Positions 19,284 to 24,272 of a stretch of DNA of 24,276 bases are shown one piece after another. Numbering within the stretch: position 1 is the stretch's first letter; each line of letters opens with the position of its first letter. This stretch comes from a virus. Taxonomy: Duplodnaviria; Caudoviricetes. Below the pieces are notes generated by a model. It searched no databases, was not told the origin of the DNA, and was given only the letters and a program-made list of their open reading frames with translations. The position numbers and the translations under genes were made by a program. The stretch spans positions 1-24,276 of the IMG/VR virus record IMGVR_UViG_3300045000_000032. One strand, given 5' to 3'.

Positions 19284-19780
19284 CCAACATCTACAGCATC
19301 CTGATCGCGCTTGCCGTGCTCGTCACCTGCGGGCCTCTCGCGATGTACTTAGCCGATAAGGCGGGCATTCCCGACTACGGCTGCAACCCGGATCAAAAAC
19401 CGGGCTGGACGGTGCTTTACATTCTCGCGCTGCTGCCGGCGTCTCTGGCGTTCGGGTTTCTGGCGCTGATGGCGCTGGTCGGTTTCGCCAGCGGCGCGAT
19501 TGCCCACGACCACGCCCGTCCCGATCTCGACGCCTGGTTCAACCGCCTCGCCAGCGGCAAGGGTCTGTGCTGTTCGCTGGCGGATGGTGAAGCCGTCGCG
19601 GATCCCGATTGGGAATCAAAGAACGGGCATCACCGCGTTCGCCTCGGCGTCGAATGGATCGACGTTCCCGACGATGCCGTGATCACCGAGCCGAACCGGG
19701 CGGGGCGCACCATGGTGTGGCCGCTCAAGGGTTATCTCGGCACCACAATCCGCTGTTTCATGCCGGGCAGCATGACGTGA
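19280..19780 (+). CDS. Membrane-anchored/exported Cys-containing hypothetical protein (166 aa)
   Basis: SD AAGGAG, GTG 19280. Two hydrophobic segments, then 'WF..L......CCS.ADG...DW...W.DVPD.AV...PN..G...VW...IRCF.PG' domain. Confidence 0.78.
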   Translation: MTNIYSILIALAVLVTCGPLAMYLADKAGIPDYGCNPDQKPGWTVLYILALLPASLAFGFLALMALVGFASGAIAHDHARPDLDAWFNRLASGKGLCCSLADGEAVADPDWESKNGHHRVRLGVEWIDVPDDAVITEPNRAGRTMVWPLKGYLGTTIRCFMPGSMT

Positions 19781-20217
19781 GCAAGCTGCCTGTTCGCATC
19801 AAGGAGCGCCGCAAGAAGTTTTGCTATGTCGGCGTGCCGGCGGTCTTCAAACTCGCACAGGCCTGTTGGCAGATCAACCAGGCGTGGAGTCATTTGGACG
19901 GTTTCGGTTGTTACCTGGTCGGCTCCTGTCTTGAGCGGCCGGACTTTCGCGACGTCGATGTCCGCATGCTGCTCAAGGATGACGTTTTCCAACGCGAATT
20001 CCCCGATGTCGCATCCATCGACTACGCGACTTGGGAACATGATCCGAAGTGGCTGATCCTCACGGTCGCTATTTCCGAGTGGCTGCGCGCCCAAACCGGG
20101 CTGCTGATCGACTTTCAGTTCCAGCCGCAAAGCTTCGCCAACAAGCGTCATGGCGGCGCGCGTCATGCGATCGGGATGAGCTACGTCTCCAGAAGGAGCG
20201 ACAATGAAACGGACTGA
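19777..20217 (+). CDS. Minimal Pol-beta-superfamily nucleotidyltransferase-like protein (146 aa)
   Basis: GTGA coupling. YLVGS-x8-DVDVR signature and a third carboxylate in LIDFQ. Confidence 0.7.
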   Translation: MSKLPVRIKERRKKFCYVGVPAVFKLAQACWQINQAWSHLDGFGCYLVGSCLERPDFRDVDVRMLLKDDVFQREFPDVASIDYATWEHDPKWLILTVAISEWLRAQTGLLIDFQFQPQSFANKRHGGARHAIGMSYVSRRSDNETD

Positions 20218-20645: not shown

Positions 20646-20849
20646 GTGACGACGGAGACGCTGAGCACGATCCTCGCCAAGGACGAAGCCGGCGAATTCC
20701 GGCTGTGGGCCTGCCGTGGCTTGGGCAAGGGTTGCGAACGCAACCGGTACCGGCGCCAGCAAAAGCCCTGCGAAGACTGCTTCGGTCCTCTCGACGAAAA
20801 CATGACGCTTGGCCAGGTCGCGGATCTGCTCAAGCGGGGCGATGCGTAA
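20646..20849 (+). CDS. Small putative Zn-binding protein (67 aa)
   Basis: SD GGGGAG, GTG 20646. C-x6-C-x11-C-x2-C. Confidence 0.6.
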   Translation: MTTETLSTILAKDEAGEFRLWACRGLGKGCERNRYRRQQKPCEDCFGPLDENMTLGQVADLLKRGDA

Positions 20850-20903: not shown

Positions 20904-21158
20904 ATGGCCATTCGCTGTAAGATGCGTCTCGACAATGTGTTTCGCCAGCAATGGGGAGGCATCAAGGCCTTCTTCAGCTGCACCTACGATCAGAAGCTCG
21001 CCGACGAGGATGTGGGGTTCCAGAAGGCCACGCCGAGCGGCAATGCGGAGTATGTGATCGACAATCCCAAGGCTGCCGAACAGCTGGAGATCGGCGCTTA
21101 CTATTACGTCGACTTCCATCCCGTGCCGAAGCCGGAGCCCGCAGCAGCGGCGACGTAA
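20904..21158 (+). CDS. Small phage hypothetical protein (84 aa)
   Basis: SD GAGGAG. 'F.KATPSG....IDNP.A...G..YYVDF' motif, a pattern I recognise from phage hypotheticals. Confidence 0.82.
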   Translation: MAIRCKMRLDNVFRQQWGGIKAFFSCTYDQKLADEDVGFQKATPSGNAEYVIDNPKAAEQLEIGAYYYVDFHPVPKPEPAAAAT

Positions 21159-21259
21159 GCAAGAAACGCAAGGCTAGAAAACACCGCCGGTTGGTCCCTC
21201 CCGGTTGACGGCGGTGGGCCTCGCGCGAAGCGATCCGGAACCATCTCCTCGCGCGGGGG

Positions 21260-21299
21260 AGCCCGCAAGGCATGTCCCGCCTTGCGGGCTTTTTTGTTT
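21260..21299 (+). terminator. Intrinsic terminator ending the late/lysis transcript
   Basis: 12-bp stem AGCCCGCAAGGC/GCCTTGCGGGCT, 7-nt loop, followed by TTTTTGTTT. Confidence 0.88.
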
Positions 21300-21454
21300 C
21301 CCGCCCGGCGTGGCGGGGGCCGAAGTGCTTGAACACTTCGAACCACGGGTCAGAGTTTCAACCAGGCCCGCCCGACGTCGAAAGCGCTCATCGTCAGCCC
21401 GCCGGCCGTCACGGTACGGATCCAAGGGTTGCCAATTCGTTGAGCTGCACAAAA
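21300..21454 (+). ncRNA. Candidate structured cis-regulatory leader of the DNA methyltransferase
   Basis: Several GC-rich hairpins, two with complementary loops (TTGAA/TTCAA). See findings. Confidence 0.5.
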
Positions 21455-22333: not shown

Positions 22334-22355
22334 CCCGCCTCGCGGGCTTTTTATT
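22334..22355 (+). terminator. Weak intrinsic terminator after the methyltransferase
   Basis: CCCGC-CTC-GCGGG stem followed by CTTTTTATT, between convergent genes. Confidence 0.5.
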
Positions 22356-22524
22356 GTCGCGGCGCCGGCGGCGGGCCTTGCTCGATGTCGACGTCGCCGT
22401 CGTGGATATGTTCGAACACCTGGGCGAGCTCGCGCATGTCGAACCACTGCCCGCAGCCGGGGCATTTCATGTGATGATCAGCCTCGGTCTGCGAGATGCC
22501 GTCGGCGTCCCGGCCGGGTTTCAT
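22351..22524 (-). CDS. Small Zn-finger-like protein (57 aa)
   Basis: MKPGRDADG...CPGCGQWFDMRELAQVFEHIH (CxxC...HxH). ATGA coupling with the ligase stop. Confidence 0.75.
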   Translation of the reverse strand: MKPGRDADGISQTEADHHMKCPGCGQWFDMRELAQVFEHIHDGDVDIEQGPPPAPRQ

Positions 22525-23126
22525 GAGAACGTATCCTTGACCCTGTGCATCGCGGGATGCTGCCGGTTCTTGACCTTGACCCAATGATCGCAGCGGCCGG
22601 CGCGGTACTGCCGATCGGCGCGCTTGGACACCAGCCCCTCGAGGCCAAGGCCGCAGGCGGCGCGGAACAGGTCCGGCCCGATCTCGCCTTGCTCGAACGG
22701 TGCCACGAAGATGCCATCGCTGCGCCGCGCCAGCAGCCGCGCGAGATTTGTCTTTCGCATCGACAGCGGCAGTTTCCGCATATCGTTGCCGTCGCCGGCC
22801 AGCATGTCGAAGGCGTAGAGCTGCACCTCGGCATCGGCCTTGCGCGAGTGCAGGGCATTGAAGTCCGAGACGCCGTCGACGCCGAGCACCACGGCCTCGC
22901 CGTCGATGACGAACTGCGTCTGGCGGATTTTCAGCGCGGTCTCGACGATCCACGGAAAGCGCTGTGTCCAGTCGTGGCCGCCGCGCGTGATCAGCCGCAC
23001 GCGGTCACCTTCCCGCACCACCAACAGGCGGTAGCCGTCATATTTGACTTCGTGAATCCAGTCCGCGCCCGATGGAACCTGTTTCCCTGACGTGGGCAGG
23101 CATGGCTCAAATGATGGTTTTGGCAT
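22521..23126 (-). CDS. ATP-dependent DNA ligase adenylation domain (LigD/LigC-like, no OB fold; 201 aa)
   Basis: Motifs EVKYDGYR, IDGEAV, YAFDML, EGLVSK, WVKVK. Protein ends ~15 aa after motif V. Start reassigned to ATG 23126 (MPKPSFEPCLP). Confidence 0.9.
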   Translation of the reverse strand: MPKPSFEPCLPTSGKQVPSGADWIHEVKYDGYRLLVVREGDRVRLITRGGHDWTQRFPWIVETALKIRQTQFVIDGEAVVLGVDGVSDFNALHSRKADAEVQLYAFDMLAGDGNDMRKLPLSMRKTNLARLLARRSDGIFVAPFEQGEIGPDLFRAACGLGLEGLVSKRADRQYRAGRCDHWVKVKNRQHPAMHRVKDTFS

Positions 23127-23164
23127 GCCGTTTAGATAGGATTTGCCGCCGAAATTGCGAATCG

Positions 23165-23611
23165 TCAGCGGGCGCGCTGGCGCCTTGCCGGCGCCGCCGG
23201 ATCCGGCACATCGCGCGGGCGCAGCGCCACCAGGTCGGGCCGCGCCTTGTTGCGCTCGTCCCGGCACGCCTGGCAGCGCAGCGCCTTGGAAAGCGTGTGG
23301 ACGCCGCGTTCGCGCGGCCAGATCACTTCCGTCAAATCCACCAGGCTTTCGTGGCCGCAGCGGCGGCAGCGCACCTCGAGCAATTCGCGCCCCGCGGCGA
23401 TGGCCTCGGCGATCGTCGGGGAGGGCGCCGCATCGCCGCCGATGAACTGCCGCACGTTCCACTCCTCGCAGGCGAGGCGATGGGCGGCGGCATAGGCCTC
23501 CGCGACCCGGCCGGGCAGCGATGCGTGCGCCTGTTCGGCCAGGCGCAGCTCGCGGACAAAGTGGCGGCGATCGCGGCCGGACATCGGCAGCTGGATGATG
23601 CGCGGGGACAT
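23165..23611 (-). CDS. Zn-ribbon hypothetical protein
   Basis: SPTIAEAIAAG...LEVRCRRC...VDL...LRCQAC (two CxxC). Start at ATG 23611 or 23632. Confidence 0.8.
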   Translation of the reverse strand: MSPRIIQLPMSGRDRRHFVRELRLAEQAHASLPGRVAEAYAAAHRLACEEWNVRQFIGGDAAPSPTIAEAIAAGRELLEVRCRRCGHESLVDLTEVIWPRERGVHTLSKALRCQACRDERNKARPDLVALRPRDVPDPAAPARRQRAR

Positions 23612-23636
23612 GGGGCTTATATAAAGGCCCATGTCC
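23606..23636. promoter_or_regulatory. Inverted repeat around an AT-rich core; candidate operator/promoter
   Basis: GGACATGGG-gcttatataaagg-CCCATGTCC, 9-bp perfect arms, overlapping the start of the leftward gene. Confidence 0.45.
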
Positions 23637-24178: not shown

Positions 24179-24272
24179 TGGCGGAGCCGGAGGGATTCGA
24201 ACCCTCGATAGGGCTTTACAACCCTATAACGGTTTAGCAAACCGCCGCCTTCAGCCACTCGGCCACAGCTCC
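24179..24272 (-). tRNA. tRNA-Ser(GCT), intact with encoded CCA; probable prophage integration site
   Basis: Reverse complement GGAGCTGTGGCCGAGTGGCTGAAGGCGGCGGTTTGCTAAACCGTTATAGGGTTGTAAAGCCCTATCGAGGGTTCGAATCCCTCCGGCTCCGCCA: acceptor stem, GCT anticodon, long variable arm, TTCGAAT loop, G discriminator. Confidence 0.98.

Follow-up and report, generated by a model that had tools for sequence, protein, structure and literature searches.

The stretch in front of an orphan phage DNA methyltransferase gene contains, as judged by comparison of homologous sequences, a real, conserved and covarying four-helix element. The structured RNA is very probably encoded on the minus strand and would be antisense to the leader of the methyltransferase mRNA. 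In combination with a predicted fold-back at the translation start site, this cis-antisense RNA is likely to silence read-through methyltransferase transcripts, a prediction in which our confidence is evenly balanced.

The window analysed here is a virus record of 24 kb (24,276 nucleotides) with an estimated completeness of ca. 45%. Tail-like and lysis genes are followed by small ORFs, a terminator-like hairpin, the 155 nt flagged by the original prediction and a D12-class methyltransferase gene (Table 1). The enzyme belongs to the MethyltransfD12 family, with a PF02086 score above the cut-off and the DPPY motif in place. Its closest genome match among the best 80 of 244 genome loci is found in Bradyrhizobium retamae (84%). 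Translation starts at ATG 21455. A clear Shine-Dalgarno sequence is lacking, as had been noted before, with an anti-SD duplex of only -1.9 kcal/mol compared with -7.2 kcal/mol for the neighbouring gene. A terminator immediately ahead of the element had also been correctly described. It is not a conserved part of the cassette, since only 8 of 76 homologous loci have a T-tract ahead of the element. A same-strand ORF ends at most 45 nt before the element in 51 of the 76. Simple translation of the region as an N-terminal extension from ATG 21272, which had been raised as an objection to an RNA leader, does not fit: this ATG sits within the terminator loop, and only 19 of 76 loci have a methyltransferase reading frame without stop codons across the element. 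A candidate plus-strand promoter, TTGCCA-16-AAAAAT, was set aside because its start would fall after the ATG.

Table 1. Predicted features around the methyltransferase leader
Feature	Position	Strand	Basis or remark
Intrinsic-terminator-like hairpin (13 bp) and T-tract	21259..21299	+	Sequence; closes upstream genes
Short hairpin P0	21300..21317	+	Weakly supported; could divert GGCGGG from mirror cloverleaf in mRNA
Predicted 92-nt cloverleaf RNA, perfect four-way junction	21312..21403	-	Unconstrained fold, covariation, strand tests
Stalk P1 of cloverleaf	21398-21403 with 21312-21317	-	Fold and covariation
Arm A	21372..21397	-	5' side repeats plus-strand sequence just before start codon
Arm B	21345..21371	-	Second hairpin of the original prediction
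Arm C	21318..21344	-	First hairpin of the original prediction
-10-like hexamer TACCGT	21411..21416	-	Ends 7 nt before cloverleaf 5' end; predicted start near 21403
Predicted mRNA leader fold-back, 21384-21400 with 21426-21448	21384..21448	+	Two blocks round 6-nt bulge; ends 7 nt before ATG
D12-class N6-adenine DNA methyltransferase, orphan, 282 aa	21455..22303	+	PF02086 E 4e-21; phrog_56 E 1.5e-69; DPPY at residue 189

Several neighbouring features were recorded alongside. Further GC-rich inverted repeats occupy 21177-21258, between the ORF at 20904-21158 and the terminator, with sub-threshold Rfam matches only. A small Cys/His ORF, an ATP-dependent ligase and a zinc-ribbon ORF (22351-23632, minus strand) converge on the methylase gene, and a ligase also adjoins this gene in phages phi2LM21 and StopSmel. 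The record ends with a tRNA-Ser gene (24179-24272, minus strand), a possible integration site. Upstream, a 146-aa ORF (19777-20217, plus strand) without Pfam or PHROG match carries a GS...DVD motif that resembles a nucleotidyltransferase signature.

All sequence motifs of the original prediction could be located, namely the hairpins at 21321-21340 and 21346-21370, the loop segments TTGAA (21329-21333) and TTCAA (21357-21361), GGCGGG (21312-21317) and CCCGCC at 21300-21305, 21367-21372 and 21398-21403. The three CCCGCC copies had been proposed as alternative partners of GGCGGG. Pairing with 21398-21403 is borne out by covariation and forms the stalk P1, while pairing with 21300-21305 (P0) is barely above control, being found in 47 of 76 loci compared with 325 of 600 swapped control pairs. 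The copy at 21367-21372 belongs to a helix other than P1. On the plus strand, P0 pairs include 59 G-U and 32 A-C combinations.

Taken alone, the 99-nt core of the window folds no better than shuffled sequences (z -1.5 plus, -1.2 minus), and homologues were therefore needed for significance. We collected homologous loci by methyltransferase protein (best 80 of 278 viral and best 80 of 244 genome loci, several being the same prophage in both sets). Four helices were found upstream of most of them, and a plus-strand model built from 17 close loci matched the same place in distant loci. Covariation was assessed in a sequence-only alignment (A4) of 56 sequences chosen for a four-way minus-strand fold; 59 had qualified and three (L053, L067 and L155) were dropped. 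Here, 87.6% of cells were paired and 26 of 28 pairs showed double changes. The covariation score of 0.465 compares with 0.208 for shuffled and at most 0.114 for slid alignments. A model-fitted alignment (A6) agrees with this result. Between two subgroups the junction is displaced by one base pair, as in a branch-migration step, all four helices being kept (A4 columns 11, 52, 84 and 119). Two other explanations were rejected. A tRNA or tRNA mimic was discarded in view of variable 3' flanks, no tRNA model match and no conserved 3' CCA, and a dispersed repeat in view of one match in four of five genomes and zero in the fifth (150 candidates scored per genome).

Strand assignment is based on several comparisons. 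In free folding, the minus strand gave the more stable structure for 115 of 120 distinct sequences. Within a set of 102 non-redundant sequences, a perfect junction without unpaired bases formed freely in 58 on the minus and 14 on the plus strand, with shuffles yielding 5/3060 and 4/3060, respectively. Mean fold z-scores were -2.98 (minus) and -1.92 (plus), with minus better in 86 of the 102. Further, paired columns of plus-model alignments contained 160 A-C but only 42 G-U combinations, and by sequence 69 of 89 had an A-C excess, 5 a G-U excess and 15 were tied. Since A-C on the plus strand corresponds to G-U on the minus strand, this excess points to minus-strand pairing. The sequences in the free-fold junction and A-C/G-U tests were not selected on the minus fold. 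GNRA, UUCG and CUUG tetraloops numbered 38 on the minus and 6 on the plus strand in the 76 loci, a set that, like A4, was chosen for a four-way minus fold and hence leans minus. Taken as sequence evidence, the wobble pairs, the junction and the tetraloops are selected on the minus strand. By the strand tests and covariation, the structured sequence thus lies on the strand opposite its presumed target. The structured leader proposed at the outset survives as a conserved RNA element that accompanies phage DNA-modification genes; its placement on the plus strand does not.

The apical loops behave differently from the stems. A kissing interaction between the two hairpin loops had been predicted, with loop-loop covariation among homologous leaders as the check. 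Such covariation is absent: loop complementarity is 4.07 nt for cognate and 4.10 nt for non-cognate pairs across 76 homologues, only 3 of which reach at least five Watson-Crick pairs. The 5-nt match in the window arises in 572 of 20,000 loop shuffles (2.9%), a rate in line with these 3 of 76, and is a chance match. Loop sequences recur in either orientation. Of 100 elements, 26 carry CGCCAA and 8 TTGGCG in the arm B loop, while 12 carry TTGGCG and 4 CGCCAA in the arm C loop; none carries both sequences together in its arm B and C loops. Such a pattern would be expected for loops that each pair with their complement on the opposite strand.

A promoter-like box precedes the predicted RNA. The 11 closest relatives were selected by visual inspection because they share a motif in the start region. 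In 8 of these 11, a TAnnnT box with varying middle bases ends 6-8 nt ahead of the cloverleaf (background 0.0023 per position). No canonical -35 element was found for this box. It was not found 3-11 nt before the cloverleaf in any of the other 66 loci. These carry a further upstream hairpin with minus-strand tetraloops, so their predicted RNA would be longer and start further up.

On the mRNA side, the predicted fold-back reaches at least 5 pairs on the plus strand in 53 of 76 loci and on the minus strand in 39 of 76. The same two-block helix recurs in the 11 close relatives, two of which (L009 and L088) show matching changes, and cognate pairing is favoured in this group (-20.3 vs -18.1 kcal/mol; 6 of 10,000 permutations). 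A nearest-relative swap over 72 loci fails to support it (38 wins, 34 losses). Wobble pairs (36 plus, 37 minus) do not resolve its strand, and the plus strand is lower in energy in 5 of 11 and 23 of 77 loci. The predicted antisense RNA covers the anti-start segment 21384-21400 and not the start codon.

We then asked how widely the element occurs. At E ≤0.1, the minus-strand model detects the element in 71 of the 80 viral loci and 72 of the 80 genome loci (143 of 160 in total), with 54 of 55 in the seed and 89 of 105 beyond it. It finds no match in 17 of 160, two of these at contig ends. When 27 candidates were scored in each of 151 genomes of the class, three new matches emerged, all three opposite D12 methyltransferase leaders. 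For a gene-independent scan, a pattern for arm C alone was used, which returned 30 viral loci, four of them already in the homologue set; the full model recognises 28 of the 30 at E <0.02, on the opposite strand. A D12 methyltransferase gene follows next in 16 loci, com in 9 and a ParB-N6/N4 methylase gene in 2; in 3 loci the next gene is of another kind or missing. Thus 27 of 30 precede methylase or com genes. Behind the nine com genes follow Mom (2), N6/N4 methylase (2), D12 (1), a ParB-domain gene (1), ATPase/GNAT (1) and unassigned genes (2). By these comparisons the element is associated with the first gene of DNA-modification cassettes, whether or not com is present, and the suspected connection to Mu com-mom holds insofar as homologous loci link it to com/mom-type cassettes. 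It is present, unannotated, in the cultured phages StopSmel, RR1-B, phi2LM21 and POA1180, with weak matches in phiKM1 and TJ1; in KS9, S1 and MuM16-1, the model detected no element ahead of the methylase genes.

Additional copies were observed at two loci. A second full copy (L097:2376-2470) heads a com and C5-methyltransferase cassette directly behind the D12 gene, and a degenerate one (L043:1020-1120) lies before a small hydrophobic ORF, ca. 220 nt upstream of the main copy. Several methyltransferases at L180, L187, L189, L198 and L168-L170 begin with MES like Com proteins, which suggests that com was lost with its start region retained. A Com zinc ribbon is present at L069, in the second-copy cassette of L097 and in 9 of the 30 pattern loci. 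None was found in the cassette of the window by Pfam, PHROG or alignment to Com proteins. The Cys4 protein at 20646-20849 (plus strand) had been put forward as a Com-like activator. It shows no similarity to Com, yields no alignment to a Com protein and has no Pfam or PHROG match. Its conserved 65-69 aa family has 24 homologues, two from Bradyrhizobium, all unnamed or hypothetical, and the assignment was rejected.

Cis-encoded antisense RNAs with kissing loops include CopA/CopT of R1, Inc RNA/repZ of IncI plasmids, ColE1 RNA I, IS10 RNA-OUT and IS200 art200. As in CopA/CopT-type systems, a counter-transcript would lie over a leader, variable loops sit on covarying stems and the leader may fold back over its start region. 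The CGCCAA/UUGGCG loop pair is one we take to be that of CopA/CopT. The element differs from these RNAs in its perfect four-way junction, its link to DNA-modification genes and the missing Rfam match. P1/P7 C4 and P4 CI are likewise small cloverleaf-like phage antisense RNAs with recognition loops. They share the coding strand with their targets and regulate antirepressor operons, whereas the present element lies opposite its target strand and yields no Rfam C4-type match at E up to 5-10.

No Rfam family matches the element. Rfam 15 covariance models, including C4, c4-2, SAM riboswitches, ribozymes and ctRNAs, gave no match in the window, and neither did scans of three sets of 20 homologous loci, one at gathering threshold and two at E up to 5. 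The D12-methyl motif (RF02950, 64-position model), named for the same enzyme class and suggested earlier as a possible match, was rejected as it reaches at best 7.9 bits against a cut-off of 57, at 21272-21322 on the minus strand over the terminator. Searches of the openly accessible literature found no description of the element, the comparison with Weinberg 2017 (PMC5737381) extending to its main text. Two automated candidates upstream of phage MethyltransfD12/Dam genes, DNAVirus_909 (59 nt, Alphaproteobacteria) and DNAVirus_549 (85 nt), have 1-2 covarying bases and are listed at most 25 bp from the gene (PMC10690425). They might overlap with part of this leader. Apart from this possible overlap, the element is, on comparative grounds, an uncatalogued RNA family and probably a variation on cis-antisense control.

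Another close parallel is Mu com-mom, likewise a late DNA-modification cassette under tight control, with the divergent promoters momP1/momP2 known at Pmom (PMC4287176, parts consulted). In some homologous loci the element stands in front of com (PF10122), with Mom or methylase genes behind it. According to the consulted parts of PMC3299994, operons of com and adenine methyltransferase genes occur in B3, FluMu and Pnm1. The present case differs in that the window lacks com, the element stands before the first cistron and not at the start of a downstream gene, and no antisense structured RNA is described in those parts, the word 'antisense' not occurring in PMC3299994.

We propose the following sequence of events. 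The 92-nt RNA would be transcribed from the TAnnnT box, and its loops may initiate pairing with their exact complements in mRNA crossing the element. Pairing with their own mRNA complement would leave the loops free to vary and to occur in either orientation. The resulting duplex would lead to decay or silence of read-through transcripts, with the fold-back over the translation start helping, and late, strong transcription or an internal promoter may override this lock. We favour repression over activation by reasoning rather than by a direct result: com, too, is preceded by the element, expression of mom occurs late and is harmful (PMC3299994, as far as consulted), and a cassette found behind many different genes needs shielding from read-through. 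Findings that count against repression include the upstream terminator in the window, which sense transcripts would have to read through to cross the element, and the start codon lying beyond the predicted RNA.

The latter finding suits an unlikely alternative, in which the same antisense RNA binds the anti-start segment, frees the translation start and replaces Com-like activation. Blocking the element in silico raises predicted start-site accessibility in the window (0.55 to 0.68) and also in L009, L014 and L088, and a slight rise points to activation rather than repression. The mean effect is small and mixed, however (0.484 to 0.504; of 77 loci, 30 rise and 25 fall). Since com itself follows the element in 9 of 30 loci, the element does not replace Com, and a host-type promoter box would suggest expression in the lysogen, where activation would be harmful.

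It is rather improbable that the element acts in trans as a separate small RNA, transcribed from a divergent promoter and accompanying the cassette but having other targets or serving as a protein decoy in which arm A mimics the start region. The self-contained stable fold, the terminator upstream in the window, the start-region sequence repeated in arm A and the divergent promoters at Pmom would agree with such a role. The loops, however, lack conservation and turn up in inverted form, which would be difficult to reconcile with a fixed target in trans. In 51 of 76 loci an upstream ORF ends right before the element, so that sense transcripts would be expected to run across it.

A DNA-level structure or protein-binding array, such as a cruciform or operator repeats, is very unlikely. 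Loops could invert in a symmetric DNA site, and GANTC occurs around the start in 40 of 76 loci (30 wholly upstream) compared with 0-9% of coding windows, although the window itself has none. GANTC, the CcrM site, is strongly enriched in homologous loci over the 35 nt ahead of the start codon, frequently in the form TGAGTCG or TGATTCT, which is similar to the GcrA motif. Against a DNA-level origin stand the one-strand G-U bias, the RNA-type tetraloops and stems that covary rather than keep their sequence. Most improbable of all is the plus-strand kissing-loop or ligand-sensing leader switch first proposed, for although the plus strand can form a mirror four-way fold in 79 of 102 sequences and has a competing fold-back, loop-loop covariation is absent and kissing largely refuted, A-C mismatches fall on this strand, and no column of the 56-sequence alignment is invariant, unlike in ligand pockets.

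Cis-antisense repression of read-through transcripts, our preferred reading, bears on a general problem, as orphan methyltransferases and Mom-like enzymes protect the phage genome against restriction but can be harmful to the host. The phi2LM21 homologue, 64% identical to the methyltransferase of the window, was inactive when cloned in E. coli, according to the part of PMC5537653 consulted. The element is open to testing in the four cultured phages that carry it. More speculatively, and with little confidence, a widespread layer of RNA control, not recognised before, may head phage DNA-modification cassettes (D12, N6/N4 and C5 methylases, Mom). Its antisense RNA with a perfect four-way junction would use three exchangeable loops as an address code, and its promoter region would read host CcrM methylation via the enriched GANTC sites, coupling phage DNA modification to the host cell cycle. 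An uncatalogued RNA family in front of four unrelated modification enzymes would extend the com-mom paradigm.
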